Positions 5,788 to 9,199 of a stretch of 64,000 nucleotides of DNA are shown piece by piece (within the stretch, counting starts at the first letter, position 1; each line of letters begins with the position of its first letter). The notes beneath the pieces are model-generated. The model made no database searches. It saw only the letters and a list, made by a program, of their open reading frames with translations, and was not told the DNA's origin. The stretch is taken from the sequence record ON528735. The stretch is one strand, 5' to 3'. The position numbers and the translations under genes were made by a program. Source of the stretch: Shigella phage ESh25.

Positions 5788-6069
5788 CTAGCGATAAAAA
5801 CCAAATTGACGATTAGCTTCAATAATCTTTCTTTCTTCTTCGGACATTCTCCAGCGTAGTCCAACATCAAAATGAGCCCAGACCATCCTAACAAATGCAT
5901 TTATATCTTTAATATCTTCAATAATGAATGTTTTACTTTTAGAAGGTTGACTCGCTAATTTAACTTTATCGTCTTCAAACATGTCAAAAAGACCATATTC
6001 ATGAGCTCTTTTATAACCTTTAATAGTTAAAGCTTCAGAAGAAGAAAATGGTGAATCTGTATTCTGCAA
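5788..6069 (-). CDS. hypothetical protein
   Basis: 93 aa ORF. Confidence 0.5.
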   Translation of the reverse strand: MQNTDSPFSSSEALTIKGYKRAHEYGLFDMFEDDKVKLASQPSKSKTFIIEDIKDINAFVRMVWAHFDVGLRWRMSEEERKIIEANRQFGFYR

Positions 6070-6410: not shown

Positions 6411-6614
6411 TCATGATTTATCACCGTAAATATCTCTCATTAATTTAAGAGCTGAGCGCTCTAATTTCTTTTCTTTCTCAGCACTAATCATTGATTTCAT
6501 CCATTCTTCCGATTCGTTCTGCATTTCTTTATTTGCCTGTTCAACCCAACCATCATCAATATACATTGAGTTTGGTCTATTGAACCATTCAAGCATTTTC
6601 TTCAGAACTTTCAT
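6411..6614 (-). CDS. hypothetical protein
   Basis: 67 aa ORF. Confidence 0.4.
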
Positions 6615-7086
6615 TTGTTTTACCTAAAACAATAGTAGGAGCATCGTCAAATTCATGAATTTTTAGCAATTTTGGATTTAAATTATTCCATACATAATAA
6701 ATAAAGTATGATAAAGCATCTTCACTCGCAATTATAAATTTATTTCCTTCATTTATTTTCCAGTCATATACTGAATCGTACGAATAAAAAGATAAAGGAT
6801 TACCATTATATTGTTCTGCGCTAACATTAATGTATTCGGATTTAGTAAATGCTTCAATTGCTCTAAACGGACTATTTGGCACAGTTTCAATAATTCCGAT
6901 CTTTTTAAGTTTTATTTCAACATCTTCTGGAACTGGCATTGAAACGAAATTTTCTACGAGATACATAGGGTTACAATAACCCTTATCAATCACTACGGCT
7001 ACAGTAATTGGAACATCTTTAGCAAACGACATGCTATTACTGCTAATATACATTTCAAACAAAATCGCTTCCATAATTTTCCTCAA
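6589..7086 (-). CDS. hypothetical protein
   Basis: 165 aa ORF. Confidence 0.5.
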
Positions 7087-7424
7087 TCACAAGATGTAGA
7101 TGAACAACTAGAATCACAAGAACTTCCACATGAATCACCTGCCCATACATGAACAGGAACATTGGTGTCATATGAATCAGAACTAGACTGTGTATTCTGT
7201 GCATTAGATGATATAGTAGGTACTGACCAGTGCCAAGGATTTTTATAATATTCTTGGGCTTCTTCATAAGTCATAGTAACTGCTTCTACTGTTCCATCTC
7301 CCATATAAACATATTCAACTACAGTTAAAGGAAGATAGTCATTTGAAATAGGAACTACACCTTCTCCCGGAGTTGTAGAGAAAAAATCTGTAAAGAAATT
7401 TTTAAACCAATTAAAGATAAACAT
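7083..7424 (-). CDS. hypothetical protein with hydrophobic N-terminus and Cys/Ser-rich C-terminal tail
   Basis: 113 aa; C-terminus [18 protein letters not shown]. Confidence 0.5.
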
Positions 7425-7636
7425 TACAAAAAGCCTCTTTGAAATTCGACTCTTTGAAATCCACCCCAGTCAGTATATCGCATTTCAGCATTGAACTCGA
7501 CTGAACCATCTGCATGCATCATGAATGAATGCGTGACGACATCACAATCCCAGCTTTTCATACCCCATTTATCAGAGATAGCTTTATCAAGAACCTTCTG
7601 AAGGTCTTCATTTGGTTTAATCCAACGATTTAACAT
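7424..7636 (-). CDS. hypothetical protein
   Basis: 70 aa ORF with early promoter upstream. Confidence 0.5.
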   Translation of the reverse strand: MLNRWIKPNEDLQKVLDKAISDKWGMKSWDCDVVTHSFMMHADGSVEFNAEMRYTDWGGFQRVEFQRGFL

Positions 7637-7662: not shown

Positions 7663-7692
7663 ATTATACCACACTCATTTTGACATGTAAAC
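7663..7692 (-). promoter_or_regulatory. early promoter (-35 GTTTAC, -10 TATAAT)
   Basis: Consensus-like hexamers on minus strand upstream of ATG at 7636. Confidence 0.5.
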
Positions 7693-7705
7693 CATAAAAT
7701 GAAAA

Positions 7706-7727
7706 AAGGAATCCCGAAGGATTCCTT
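7706..7727 (-). terminator. intrinsic terminator hairpin (tetraloop)
   Basis: aaggaatcccgaaggattcctt inverted repeat just downstream of soc. Confidence 0.5.
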
Positions 7728-7734
7728 AAATTAT

Positions 7735-7992
7735 TTAACCACCTACACCTGGTGTAGGTGTAACAGTCCAAAGACCTTCATTAGCAGTGATCCATTCAGT
7801 ACGCTGATTTTCTTCATATACTGTAGAATATGCTGCTTTTTCAGAAGGGAATGTCTGATAATGAGCACCAGAAATTTTGTGAACATCAGAATAAAGAGGG
7901 AAAGCTACAGAAATTTCTTTACCCTGAATTGTACCACCATCAACTGCTTGGTCAAATGTTTTGATATTAACATAACCGCGAGTACTAGCCAT
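7735..7992 (-). CDS. soc: small outer capsid protein Soc
   Basis: 85 aa; MASTRGYVNIKTF...SVAFPLYSDVHKISGAHYQTFPSEKAAYSTVYEENQRTEW matches T4 Soc with a few substitutions. Confidence 0.9.
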   Translation of the reverse strand: MASTRGYVNIKTFDQAVDGGTIQGKEISVAFPLYSDVHKISGAHYQTFPSEKAAYSTVYEENQRTEWITANEGLWTVTPTPGVGG

Positions 7993-8008
7993 GTAATTCT
8001 CCTTTTAT

Positions 8009-8218
8009 TTAAATTACATGATTATTTATAATAAATTCTCGCGGAACGTTAAAATACCCGATTTTAGTTAATATAACAACATCGCCGTTAATAATTACCG
8101 GAGAATAATCTTCTGGAGCATTAAATTTCCAATGGGCTCTAATATTATATCCATCAGAACCAAATGCTCGCGTAGCTGGTCTCCCAGCTTTTTGCCATGC
8201 GTAGAAATCAAATTTCAT
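8009..8218 (-). CDS. hypothetical protein
   Basis: 69 aa ORF. Confidence 0.45.
   Translation of the reverse strand: MKFDFYAWQKAGRPATRAFGSDGYNIRAHWKFNAPEDYSPVIINGDVVILTKIGYFNVPREFIINNHVI
8023..8030 (-). promoter_or_regulatory. late promoter TATAAATA upstream of soc
   Basis: TATAAATA on minus strand ~30 nt upstream of soc ATG; soc is a late gene in T4. Confidence 0.5.
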
Positions 8219-8409
8219 TTTGAATGCTCTATAATTAATTTTAAAGCTTCTTCACTGACAAAAATTTCGTCAGGACCTTCTATAACTTCAACCATACGAA
8301 GTTGATTAGTTAAGAGCTCACATACGAGCTCCTTGTTATAATCTTTAAATAGCTGGTCAATACGTTTCTTATGGGCTTTCTTGAGCTGACGCTTATTTAA
8401 ACGAGCCAT
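8215..8409 (-). CDS. hypothetical basic protein
   Basis: 64 aa ORF, overlaps neighbours by 4 nt. Confidence 0.45.
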   Translation of the reverse strand: MARLNKRQLKKAHKKRIDQLFKDYNKELVCELLTNQLRMVEVIEGPDEIFVSEEALKLIIEHSK

Positions 8410-8927
8410 TAATAACCTCGGTCTTGACGAGCGAAGTTTTCAGCATTTTTCAGGTAATAAAGTTTAAAGATTTCTTCAGCTGACATTCCAAGAGCAATAA
8501 ATTTATTCATGAAAAAGTGAAATTGGTCAATCAGTTCAAATTTAATTTCAAGCTGATCTTCAGGAGATAAATCTTGAATTTTCTTGGATTGCATTTCAGA
8601 ATAACGTTTCTTCCAAGGTTTCCATACAGCAGAAGCTTCTTTTTCACCATTACTCATACCACCAAGAGAAGTATATAGCTCGCGAGTTTCATCTGCGATA
8701 TAATCGTCTTGGTTTCGCAACCAAGCAAGAACTTCTCCTGCAGTTTCAAGTGAATCAGGATGACGATTTGTTTCTGGTTTATCATTAGCCAAACGAATCT
8801 GTAGATGCCGCTGCATGTCAAGCATAACCTGCAGTGGGTCAATATTGTGCATAATATTCTCAGCATATGCACGATTTGCTTTATCAACACCTTCGATCAA
8901 ATGAGCGCATTCATTAAAGTAAGCCAT
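8409..8927 (-). CDS. 56: dCTPase/dUTPase (gp56)
   Basis: Track ORF (203 aa) trimmed to internal ATG giving 171 aa MAYFNECAHL..., the T4 gp56 length; T4 synteny. Confidence 0.8.
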   Translation of the reverse strand: MAYFNECAHLIEGVDKANRAYAENIMHNIDPLQVMLDMQRHLQIRLANDKPETNRHPDSLETAGEVLAWLRNQDDYIADETRELYTSLGGMSNGEKEASAVWKPWKKRYSEMQSKKIQDLSPEDQLEIKFELIDQFHFFMNKFIALGMSAEEIFKLYYLKNAENFARQDRGY

Positions 8928-8998
8928 TATTTTTCCTTTCAATTCATGGGTTAGTAGATTAATTATACAATAAATATATAAAGCAATAAGGAGGACAT

Positions 8999-9199
8999 AT
9001 GGTACAAAAATTAATGGCACTTGTTAATGCCATAAAAGGTAATAAAAAACGTATAGCTTTTACTATTTCTGCTATGGTAGGAATTTTACTCTGGAATTTT
9101 GTTTTATCACCAATTGCTATTGCTCATGGTGTTAATATTCCAGTAGTTACTCTTGATACATTTGTAGATTTAGCATTTGCTTTAGTTGGGTTGATTTAA
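8999..9199 (+). CDS. small two-helix membrane protein (plus strand)
   Basis: 66 aa; strong SD AAGGAGG 6 nt before ATG; hydrophobic segments; the only convincing plus-strand gene in the window. Confidence 0.5.
   Translation: MVQKLMALVNAIKGNKKRIAFTISAMVGILLWNFVLSPIAIAHGVNIPVVTLDTFVDLAFALVGLI

Follow-up and report, generated by a model that had tools for sequence, protein, structure and literature searches.

Described systems compared with Mrh.1

Flexible low-complexity stretches in which thiols are paired with carboxylates are found in cysteine-rich metal-binding peptides such as metallothioneins, phytochelatins and the metal-binding C-terminal tail of SlyD, as in the tail of the phage protein Mrh.1. 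In Mrh.1, however, the cysteines are far sparser (two to four), and the T4 group has neither C-x-C nor C-C clusters. Another point of comparison is provided by lambda CIII and SpoVM, small amphipathic-helix inhibitors of FtsH, the former of which stabilises sigma-32 (PMC1838920). By analogy, Mrh.1 may be likened to CIII and Bacillus SpoVM, small proteins in which an amphipathic helix is the active element, and it adjoins genes that carry a sigma-32 modulator annotation; it differs in having no sequence relationship to either of them, and a Cys tail is absent from CIII.

Among lytic phages T4 is the reference, yet about half of its genes, mrh.1 included, have no function. The gene is not new; it has long been annotated in T4, and no function has been assigned to any member of its family. 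Nothing on mrh.1, DUF7206, PF23836, P20706 or T4p027 was found in the main texts of the literature, and the data came from supplements alone. According to these data, T4 mrh.1 RNA belongs to the early class. In T4 time-course proteomics the protein was left unclassified, although it yields tryptic peptides that lend themselves poorly to detection. In the CRISPRi-ART knockdown entries for these genes, T4 mrh.1 is rated 'Semi-Fit' with a score of 0.79 (p=0.069), a weak fitness signal, and mrh.2 and mrh are rated 'Not Fit' (PMC11879866).

Identification of the ORF as mrh.1

The window, a stretch of 64,000 nucleotides from Shigella phage ESh25 (ON528735), was found by ORF listing and translation to contain a 113-aa ORF at positions 7083..7424 of the minus strand (342 nt, of which 7083-7085 are the TGA stop). 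All features given below also lie on the minus strand. In a Pfam scan, the encoded protein matched PF23836 (DUF7206) with 101.4 bits (E=5.4e-29), exceeding the gathering threshold of 25.6 bits, and positions 1-107 of the 107-position model were aligned end to end with residues 3-113. The protein also matched phrog_2031 (E=1.4e-33), a family of the PHROG category 'unknown function'. The hallmarks of DUF7206, the YMGDG core and the SCD end, were both present; among the homolog clusters, a Y.GDG core was found in 113 of 115 and a C[DN] end in every one.

The window DNA showed 99.8% identity to Tequatrovirus phages, and the protein was 95% identical to T4 Mrh.1 (P20706, AAD42613.1; PF23836, phrog_2031). 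The T4 protein likewise has 113 aa and is encoded between mrh.2 and mrh, its tail is identical, and the window protein departs from it by a few substitutions only, e.g., S9N, R65H and T68V. With near certainty, the ORF is the Tequatrovirus ortholog of T4 mrh.1 and codes for an accessory protein of small size, transcribed early as part of the host-takeover block soc-mrh.2-mrh.1-mrh-srh-modB-modA. No match beyond DUF7206 was obtained in a PDB sequence-profile search, NCBIfam, PADLOC or Pfam (E up to 1). With regard to known defence and anti-defence proteins, the window protein had neither a PADLOC match nor a match to an annotated anti-defence family.

Organization of the locus

The gene order in the window, soc-mrh.2-mrh.1-mrh-srh-modB/A, was the same as in T4, RB32 and GiZh. 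The early-block order with mrh.1 (soc, mrh.2, mrh/srh and the Mod ADP-ribosyltransferases) was also found in JS98-type, PEi20 and Karamvirus-like genomes, and in the JS98-type phages mrh was absent beside mrh.1.

An intrinsic terminator after soc (7706..7727), at which the GiZh annotation also has a terminator, parts soc from the mrh.2-mrh.1 unit. Upstream of this unit, a near-consensus sigma-70 promoter of the T4 early type was found at 7663..7691 (TTTACA-17-TATAAT with an extended -10 TG), with 11 of 12 positions matching. The upstream gene mrh.2 (7424..7636), recognized by ORF listing, PHROG and neighbour comparison, encodes a 70-aa protein of phrog_1873, for which the function is unknown. 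The mrh.1 ATG and the mrh.2 TAA share 1 nt at 7424, and the JS98-type loci overlap likewise; from this start/stop overlap, we infer that translation of the two genes is coupled. A ribosome-binding site, AAAGAGG, was read from the sequence within the end of mrh.2 (7434..7440), with its GAGG 10-13 nt upstream of mrh.1. The downstream gene mrh (6589..7074; 161 aa), assigned by Pfam (PF24070, T4_MRH), PHROG and its neighbours, starts 8 nt past the mrh.1 stop.

Architecture of the Mrh.1 protein

Both an aromatic N-terminus and a Cys/Ser-rich C-terminal tail, which a preliminary description of the ORF had pointed out, were present in the protein. Seven Phe and one Trp were counted within 15 N-terminal residues, and 15 Ser were found in the last 48 residues versus 2 in the first 65. 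The N-terminal aromatic amphipathic helix (residues 1-16; 7377..7424) was placed by AF2 at residues 3-15 and has the family consensus MxxW[LI]KxLF. Its hydrophobic moment was 0.42, as compared with 0.5-0.63 for other members of the family, and K8 and F11 were at least 90% conserved. A resemblance of the N-terminal FTDFF to gp45 clamp-binding motifs was considered and dropped, since most members have neither the Asp nor the second Phe pair.

Alignments revealed a conserved PGEGVVPI motif at residues 19-26 (7347..7370). The best-conserved part of the protein, the core at residues 34-61 (7242..7325), was assigned from alignment and AF2 as a β-hairpin followed by a short helix, with predicted strands at 34-40 and 46-52, a predicted helix at 53-61 and pLDDT values of 77-88. 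Among 56 diverse sequences, Y40, G42, D43, G44 and E47 of the core were invariant. The core is followed by a variable linker rich in Ser, Thr, Asn and Gln (residues 62-93; 7146..7241), which is predicted to be disordered (pLDDT below 50 from residue 70). In other genera, as in the mosaic protein P0003, segments that are unrelated or of greater length take the place of this linker. A likeness of the T4-type linker to the C-terminal region of Hfq was set aside as a low-complexity coincidence, the linker being unconserved outside the T4 group. The conserved C-terminal tail (residues 94-113; 7086..7145), which ends in Cys-Asp-COOH, was delimited by alignment, the statistics of 115 clusters and the synonymous changes.

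In the AF2 models, a globular fold was absent (pTM 0.20-0.28) and the tail was disordered. A Foldseek search against BFVD for structural relatives gave family members alone, with poor TM-scores. By alignment and prediction, Mrh.1 consists of three short conserved modules, the N-terminal helix, the EYVYMGDG hairpin with its helix and the C-terminal tail, carried on variable disordered linkers.

Conservation of the C-terminal tail

All cysteines of the window protein (C99, C103, C107 and C112; spacing 3, 3, 4) are in the tail. At the Cys frequency of the window ORFs, at least four Cys in a given 15-aa stretch have a probability of approximately 8e-5, and mrh.1 was the sole window ORF of at least 60 aa with four Cys in its last 20 residues. 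No DNA tandem repeat was detected beneath the tail by Tandem Repeats Finder.

Homologs were searched for in three ways: a word-index search returned near-identical Tequatrovirus clusters only, phmmer returned two distant members, and a profile search returned 153 clusters. As a result that would refute it, the preliminary description had named a tail absent or frame-shifted in all homologs. This did not hold: each of the 115 full-length homolog clusters was found to carry the tail, in frame, in the form …YDSG(S)SCDS[SG]x3-8C[DN]-COOH, with CD as the final residues in 113 of them and CN in 2. Exactly two Cys were located within the last 25 residues in 110 of the 115 clusters, and 107 had no Cys elsewhere. 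These two tail cysteines were near-invariant (C112 was invariant), each was followed by Asp, and the SCDS unit and D113 were at least 90% conserved. Four tail Cys were found in the T4 group alone, and P0053 and P0087 have three; the extra Cys were gained several times, within the tail only, at positions aligned with Tyr of other members. The even spacing of the cysteines, as first described, nearly holds for the window protein and is not a conserved property, since most homologs have two Cys at a distance of 5-10 residues.

Across the clusters, the last 20 residues consisted of S (45%), D (17%), G (15%), C (10%) and Y (8%), K, R, E and H were absent, and the net charge was negative. The pN of the tail was 0.13 versus a pS of 0.61, which was much like the core, and the constraint is stronger than this pN/pS of 0.2 because the Nei-Gojobori nonsynonymous count of the tail is inflated by switches between TCN and AGY Ser codons. 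The Ser codons at fixed tail positions alternated between these two classes, and synonymous changes dominated. The tail was also retained through recombination in P0003, and it was conserved, yet the column identity of the family averages 27% across genera.

Judged from these alignments, the tail is under purifying selection and is not a spurious extension, above all because it is conserved in homologs. The earlier view that the tail is unusual for a phage early protein, real and probably functional was borne out. The tail probably does something, and its likeliest task is to hold a metal ion or a protein of the host.

Occurrence of the tail in other phage proteins

Proteins of rV5-like phages (Vequintavirinae/Seunavirus), namely PVP-SE1 gp35 and GAP31_237 (phrog_17348), share with Mrh.1 an FFKWLxxxF helix at the N-terminus, a GPNAKPLKAEELKRAV helix in the centre and a C-terminal tail ...SYSSCDSSSSYSGSCD-COOH. 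The comparison of phrog_17348 with DUF7206 by hhalign gave a probability of 97.7% (E=2e-12), and by this profile alignment the rV5-like tail proteins are homologous to DUF7206. They differ from Mrh.1 in that the EYVYMGDG hairpin is absent, the length is greater (134-190 aa), the N-terminus is more hydrophobic and the genome context is another one.

A likeness confined to the protein end (...SGWDAxGxDSSSSCxSGSSxCCD-COOH versus ...SSWTGDSS..DSGSCDSSSSSCD-COOH) was found for the SSU5-like phage-plasmid proteins SSU5_091 and WP_032734169.1 (phrog_10411). A tail-only hhalign comparison with phrog_10411 gave a probability of 66% (E=5.5e-5). Outside the tail these proteins are unrelated to Mrh.1: their N-terminal half is coiled-coil-like, a His-rich run with extra Cys comes just ahead of the tail, and no Pfam family was matched by them. 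The resemblance, limited to the tail, may have arisen by convergence or by the shuffling of a module.

With a profile built from the last 42 residues, only two matches were obtained, both at E of approximately 7, which is not significant alone; both end in the motif, and they led to the SSU5-like family and a mini-protein. The tail is also found on mini-proteins of 38-57 aa, which resemble Mrh.1 in the tail only, and on a protein of 116 aa that has a CxxC at its N-terminus. A scan of cellular genomes with a degenerate DNA pattern, which is little guide to the frequency of the tail in bacteria, gave, among the matches listed, nearly all chance short ORFs, save one 38-aa ORF of Bacillus.

It is conceivable, if rather unlikely, that the last 20-40 or so residues (a hydrophobic/aromatic strand, a Ser/Asp/Gly/Tyr run and SCDS-x(3-8)-C-D-COOH) constitute an undescribed portable functional module, which phages would join to the differing N-terminal parts of Mrh.1, phrog_17348, phrog_10411, the mini-proteins and the 116-aa protein. 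Such a module could be a new thiol/carboxylate metal clasp or a covalent hook to a conserved bacterial target, perhaps the catalytic zinc of an FtsH-like membrane protease.

Possible functions of the tail

Metal chelation was chosen, tentatively, as the favoured mechanism: Mrh.1 may be a protein of the cytoplasm that interacts with the host and chelates a metal by means of its thiol/carboxylate tail. The protein would remain in the cytoplasm, and its role would be binding rather than catalysis, because the AF2 models have no globular fold and no matches were found in PDB, NCBIfam or PADLOC. The tail would act as a flexible chelator that captures, e.g., Zn2+ or Fe with its two Cys-Asp pairs and the carboxylate that is free at the C-terminus. 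In two-Cys members, the metal would probably be shared by two chains or with a partner protein, whereas in the four-Cys T4 group one chain could suffice. The metal-bound clasp, together with the amphipathic helix, would anchor Mrh.1 to a host target or membrane, and the outcome for the phage would be a small growth advantage.

Chelation is favoured because Cys has been kept in a Ser-rich stretch where a swap between Cys and Ser is one base change, and because the loose Cys-Cys spacing fits a flexible loop better than a fixed docking motif. It is further suggested by the pairing of the near-invariant Cys with Asp, by the gain of extra Cys only inside the tail, and by the His-rich run and extra Cys before the tail of the SSU5-like proteins. 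Against it stand the conservation of only two Cys, which are too few for a classical single-chain site, the disorder of the modelled tail, the lack of a match to any metal-binding family or motif, the missing class of the protein in T4 time-course proteomics, the weakness of the knockdown signal and the possibility that an acidic tail rich in Ser, Asp and Tyr serves equally as a non-metal docking or decoy motif.

A classical zinc-finger, zinc-ribbon or Fe-S signature was not found in the window protein, which has no CxxC or CxxH knuckles and matched only DUF7206 in Pfam and NCBIfam. Metal binding of some other kind would be compatible with this result.

The closest rival, a possible though doubtful reading, is that the tail works without metal as a short linear motif or a nucleic-acid or phospho-protein mimic that plugs into a host protein, maybe with a reversible disulfide; the helix would be a second contact, and Mrh.1 would be an adaptor or inhibitor. 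The predicted disorder, the lack of K, R, E and H with the net negative charge, and the position of mrh.1 among host-takeover genes are consistent with this. So is the fact that several families of phages have the tail on N-terminal parts that are unrelated to one another, which would be expected of a portable binding module. However, the gap of 5-10 residues between the SCD units and the varying Cys number are odd for a motif that fits a fixed groove, and the strictness of the Cys in a Ser-rich background hints at thiol chemistry.

That Mrh.1 inhibits a zinc protease of the membrane, for which FtsH is the candidate, was considered improbable. Thiol and carboxylate groups are good zinc ligands, and in a lambda CIII-like manner the predicted N-terminal amphipathic helix might direct Mrh.1 to the membrane or protease, where the Cys/Asp tail would cap the catalytic zinc as a cysteine switch and stabilise sigma-32 or other substrates. 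A sigma-32 modulator annotation is given to the flanking genes mrh and srh, but the sigma-32 link comes from these neighbour-gene names only, and JS98-type phages lack mrh next to mrh.1. The proposal is a pure analogy, since similarity to CIII was not found and Pfam, searched up to E of 1, returned DUF7206 alone.

Export or membrane insertion, with the tail cysteines forming a periplasmic disulfide loop, is very unlikely. A Cys-x(5-10)-Cys pair would be able to close a loop, and in the rV5-like homologs the N-terminus, FFKWLLGLFSTTTVVSIG, is longer and more hydrophobic. In the T4-type proteins, however, the N-terminal hydrophobic run of 7-9 residues is broken by K, N and D, is followed by PGEG and is far too short to be a signal peptide or transmembrane helix, and AF2 predicts just a short amphipathic helix of 6-13 residues. 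By inspection, no unbroken hydrophobic core, which in a signal peptide spans 10-15 residues after a charged n-region, was found in the window protein or its relatives (MINWLKNLFKTKPGEG). The disulfide-rich secretion proposed in the preliminary description finds no support: there is a short amphipathic helix at the N-terminus and neither a signal peptide nor a transmembrane segment.

That the tail is a functionless extension kept by mutation bias is highly improbable. It is a low-complexity stretch and is masked by the BLAST filter, but its conservation in so divergent a family, a pN far under pS and the terminal CD of 113 of the 115 clusters argue against this reading, as do the absence of a DNA repeat, the retention of the tail after recombination and its recurrence on other protein families.

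The modified peptide-like tail that had also been suggested, i.e., a RiPP precursor with thiazole/oxazole, lanthionine or thioether groups made from the Ser/Cys tail, is scarcely credible: microcin B17-type precursors have Ser/Cys/Gly-rich core peptides of a composition similar to that of the Mrh.1 C-terminus, but the conserved mrh.1 neighbourhoods examined hold only Soc, small ORFs, T4_MRH, Y01E, Mod ADP-ribosyltransferases and Dda, with no cyclodehydratase, radical-SAM enzyme, lanthionine synthetase, protease or exporter, and a lytic phage would express the precursor early in a cell that it will kill. Of the three meanings originally given to the tail, metal binding alone stays plausible, as a candidate.

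Significance

With the invariant C-terminal Cys-Asp tail, mrh.1 gains a defined, testable element, which was shown to recur on other phage proteins. Together with the published weak knockdown phenotype, the tail makes a focused experiment easy to plan. If the tail is not a portable clasp or hook, mrh.1 would be another conserved yet dispensable accessory gene. If it is one, either clasping a metal or targeting the host, annotations would follow together for several PHROG families of 'unknown function', and the tail may represent a new route by which phages engage a host factor.

Identity, locus and expression of the gene

The ORF is located at 7083..7424 on the minus strand and, including its TGA stop, comprises 342 nt encoding 113 aa. 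Translation confirmed the Cys/Ser-rich tail and the aromatic N-terminus reported in the preliminary description, in which the strand was missing: residues 1-15 include seven Phe and one Trp, and C99, C103, C107 and C112 all lie in the tail (residues 94-113), with no Cys elsewhere in the protein. At the Cys frequency of the window's ORFs, a given stretch of 15 residues would contain four Cys with P ~8e-5, and of the window ORFs of at least 60 aa, this is the only one with four Cys among the 20 C-terminal residues. No DNA repeat was detected beneath the tail by Tandem Repeats Finder.

The Pfam family PF23836 (DUF7206) matched the protein end to end with 101 bits, phrog_2031 (PHROG category 'unknown function') also matched it, and T4 Mrh.1 was 95% identical to it, with an identical tail. 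HMM score, synteny and hallmark motifs all assigned the ORF to DUF7206 / T4 Mrh.1. The gene is already known: it has figured in T4 annotation for decades and is present in Pfam, PHROGs and UniProt (P20706); the literature search found no paper treating the Mrh.1 protein itself.

The 1.6 kb around mrh.1 shared 99.8% identity with Tequatrovirus phages ES12/ES26 and 99.6% with GiZh. The minus-strand gene order, 61, 56, two small ORFs, soc, mrh.2, mrh.1, mrh, srh, modA.4, modA.3, modA.2, modB, modA, is that of T4, RB32 and GiZh. On the same strand, a terminator (7727-7706) lies 3' of soc, and mrh.1 stands behind a near-consensus early-type promoter (7691-7663; TTTACA-17-TATAAT with extended -10 TG) located 5' of mrh.2. 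GAGG is present 10-13 nt 5' of the mrh.1 ATG, which shares one base with the TAA of the upstream ORF.

In a time-resolved omics study of T4, mrh.1 RNA belongs to the early class; Mrh and Mrh.2 were found at the protein level, and the class entry for the Mrh.1 protein is 'NA' (PMC9697503). This non-detection is weak evidence because the tryptic peptides predicted from the sequence have 8, 53, 4 and 48 residues. A genome-wide dCas13d knockdown screen of T4 indicates a weak fitness effect: mrh.1 was 'Semi-Fit' (score 0.79, p=0.069), as one of five such genes of purely unknown function, and its neighbours mrh.2 and mrh scored 'Not Fit' (PMC11879866).

Several other features of the locus were observed. 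Between soc and gene 56, a pair of overlapping small ORFs (69 and 64 aa; 8009-8409, minus strand) occupies the site of the homing endonuclease gene segF in T4 and is unannotated in the near-identical GiZh record. Between genes 56 and 61, where T4 has dam, a hydrophobic 66-aa ORF lies on the opposite strand (8999-9199, plus) and is annotated in GiZh/RB32 as similar to RB32ORF030w/RB69ORF029w. The mechanically called ORF of gene 56 (dCTPase; 8409-9020, minus) has a GTG start and 203 aa; in related phages the gene is annotated as shorter, ~172 aa, starting at MAYFNECAH (~8927). Alternative-frame ORFs overlapping mrh.1 (7055-7267, minus, 70 aa) and soc (7699-8031, plus, 110 aa) are Cys- or Leu-rich putative artefacts of AT-rich sequence.

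Gene neighbourhood in related phages

The order Soc, small ORF(s), DUF7206, T4_MRH or srh, Y01E, Mod ADP-ribosyltransferase and, further on, Dda was retained in JS98-type, PEi20, Karamvirus-like and other genomes. JS98-type loci likewise retained the overlap of the DUF7206 start codon with the stop of the preceding mrh.2-like gene, as ATGA. In related records, modA.3 (5788-6069, minus) and mrh (6589-7074, minus) both match phrog_1234 / T4_MRH; therefore, modA.3 is an mrh paralog, and the block contains two Mrh-family genes. JS98-type phages have only the modA.3-type copy, and srh directly follows mrh.1. A Karamvirus-like contig (ERR11525766_1718, L017:1224-2738) encodes a 504-aa protein with a Soc domain and a GDSL lipase/esterase domain, directly 3' of a normal soc and 5' of the mrh.2/mrh.1 homologs; this protein may be an enzyme-bearing capsid-decoration protein.

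Conservation of the tail

A profile search for homologs yielded 153 clusters, with PF23836 in every one among the matches listed, ranging over T4-, RB69/JS98-, Karamvirus-, PEi20- and Serratia PS2-type phages. Of these, 122 were retrieved and 115 were full length, the latter being the basis of the tail counts; six of the other seven were fragments at contig ends or carried a frameshift, and P0005 was an N-terminally truncated protein with the tail kept. The tail was neither absent nor frame-shifted: every full-length cluster ended in C[DN], with Cys-Asp in 113 and Cys-Asn in two. Exactly two Cys within the last 25 residues were found in 110/115, Cys was confined to the tail in 107/115, and 105/115 matched CDS-x(2-8)-C[DN]$. 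The last 20 residues of the 115 clusters consisted of Ser (45%), Asp (17%), Gly (15%), Cys (10%) and Tyr (8%); Lys, Arg, Glu and His were absent.

In a 56-sequence alignment with a mean column identity of only 27%, C112 was invariant, and S102, C103, D104, S105 and D113 were at least 90% conserved, which equals the conservation of core residues Y40, G42, D43, G44 and E47. Synonymous changes (TGT/TGC, GAT/GAC, and Ser codons TCN to AGY and back) build up in the tail DNA. For the last 12 codons, pN was 0.13 vs a pS of 0.61, the nonsynonymous count being artificially raised by switches between Ser codon classes; the core gave 0.09 vs 0.71. Purifying selection thus acts on the tail.

The cysteines had been described as evenly spaced. 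This holds roughly for the window protein (spacings 3, 3, 4) and not for the family, in which the conserved feature is a pair of SCD units separated by 5-10 residues, the second unit forming the C-terminal end. Only the T4 group has the four-Cys tail, its additional Cys aligning with Tyr residues elsewhere in the family; three Cys each are present in ESCO47 (P0053) and cluster P0087. The 164-aa protein of cluster P0003 (phages 235Ecol030PP and fPS-90; BFVD A0A449C3E1) has a T4-type front followed by a JS98/RB69-type middle (MEEIIRQPEKAGNVG...LNSKKLKEHLD...AVSSW) and a T4-type four-Cys tail. Therefore, recombination has occurred within mrh.1 between genera.

Predicted structure

AlphaFold2 was run on two alignments, one of the window protein and one of a JS98-type member. 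The first model (mean pLDDT 58.6, pTM 0.28) contained two helices, 3-15 and 53-61, with a β-hairpin (34-40/46-52) between them and, from ~62 to the end, low-confidence coil with pLDDT <50 at 70-106. The JS98-type model (pTM 0.20) had two more helices, in the linker, and a likewise unstructured tail. The N-terminal helix is amphipathic, with a hydrophobic moment of 0.42 in the window protein and 0.5-0.63 in relatives. Foldseek against BFVD returned only family members, and profile searches of PDB sequences, NCBIfam and PADLOC gave no match. The models and these searches thus suggest that Mrh.1 is built of three short conserved modules connected by flexible linkers rather than of an enzyme-like domain.

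Occurrence of the tail on other phage proteins

Other tail-bearing proteins were reached through weak tail-only matches and by scanning viral contigs twice with degenerate DNA patterns. The rV5-like proteins of phrog_17348, namely PVP-SE1 gp35 (Salmonella phage, L033:5175-5693), GAP31_237 (Cronobacter phage, L039:1201-1773) and those of further Seunavirus loci (L060/L070/L076/L077/L080), start with MxKFFKWLxxxF and end in ...SYSSCDSSSSYSGSCD, with the SCDS...SCD tail of Mrh.1. They align with DUF7206 through a common GPNAKPLKAEELKRAV helix (hhalign probability 97.7%) and lack its EYVYMGDG hairpin. The alignment shows them to be remote DUF7206 homologs outside current Pfam coverage.

The SSU5-like phage-plasmid proteins of phrog_10411 (164-179 aa, no Pfam) include WP_032734169.1, SSU5_091 and Cyrano_83; the loci are L021:2643-3182 (E. 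coli plasmid pKP389-3), L022:1501-1995 (SSU5 091) and L023:1501-1995 (Cyrano 83). Their bodies are unrelated to Mrh.1 and carry a His-rich run just before an end close to the Mrh.1 tail, ...SC[HL]SGWDAxGxDSSSSCxSGSSxCCD-COOH; alignment with DUF7206 covered the tail alone (hhalign probability 66%, E=5.5e-5). In Klebsiella/E. coli plasmids and Cyrano, the gene lies just 5' of TerB/TciA-like and DUF3927/TciB-like genes.

Predicted mini-proteins of 38-57 aa consist of a basic segment and a tail ending ...SCDSxxxSCD (P0123 at L020:2436-2603; L071:4783-4956; L034:12110-12226). P0123 adjoins an Acb2/Tad1-hairpin gene (anti-CBASS/Thoeris sponge-like), and the L034 mini-protein is identical to a Bacillus gaemokensis ORF (L098), apart from which the matches listed in the cellular-genome pattern scan were noise. 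A 116-aa protein with an N-terminal CxxC (L042:1669-2019) has the same end. The non-homologous cases are individually not statistically secure; jointly, they suggest that the tail may be a portable module.

Possible function of the tail

Metal binding, one of the functions initially proposed, is plausible from the residue pattern, and a flexible thiol/carboxylate chelator would be the best, if tentative, fit. The near-invariant thiols persist in a Ser-rich stretch where one base change swaps Cys and Ser; Asp, never Glu, follows each thiol, with a free terminal carboxylate nearby; loop length is loose, and extra Cys were gained repeatedly within the tail only; and a His-rich run adjoins the like tail of the phage-plasmid proteins. 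In two-Cys members, a second chain or partner protein would probably complete the metal site. Mrh.1 showed no catalytic domain and, on every criterion that could be tested, did not belong to the zinc-finger, metallothionein, signal-peptide, RiPP, CIII or defence-related groups.

The main rival, a docking or decoy tail operating without metal, is also possible, if slightly doubtful. It is more specific, more speculative and improbable that Mrh.1 inhibits a membrane zinc protease such as FtsH; this would rest on the parallel with lambda CIII and SpoVM, two inhibitors that have an amphipathic helix (PMC1838920), and on the sigma-32-related names of neighbouring genes. Disulfide-rich secretion, also raised initially, found no support, a signal peptide being absent from Mrh.1, and a periplasmic disulfide loop formed by two tail Cys is slightly more improbable. 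Set beside the selection on the tail, a neutral low-complexity extension is hardly credible. The earlier suggestion of a modified peptide-like tail was unsupported, no modifying enzyme being encoded nearby, and a RiPP precursor is the least credible of all; in the neighbourhoods examined, no modifying enzyme, exporter or protease adjoined the DUF7206 gene. The residual probability falls to something else.

In this known accessory gene of T4, the tail is a genuine and conserved feature that is as yet uncharacterised. The tail as defined across the family (...SCDS-x(3-8)-C-D-COOH), the inclusion of rV5-like phage proteins in the family and the reappearance of the tail on phage proteins unrelated to Mrh.1 appear undescribed, no description of them having been found in the available literature. 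A role of the tail as a portable metal clasp or as a hook for a host target is unlikely, albeit conceivable; if this were true, the feature would gain in importance.
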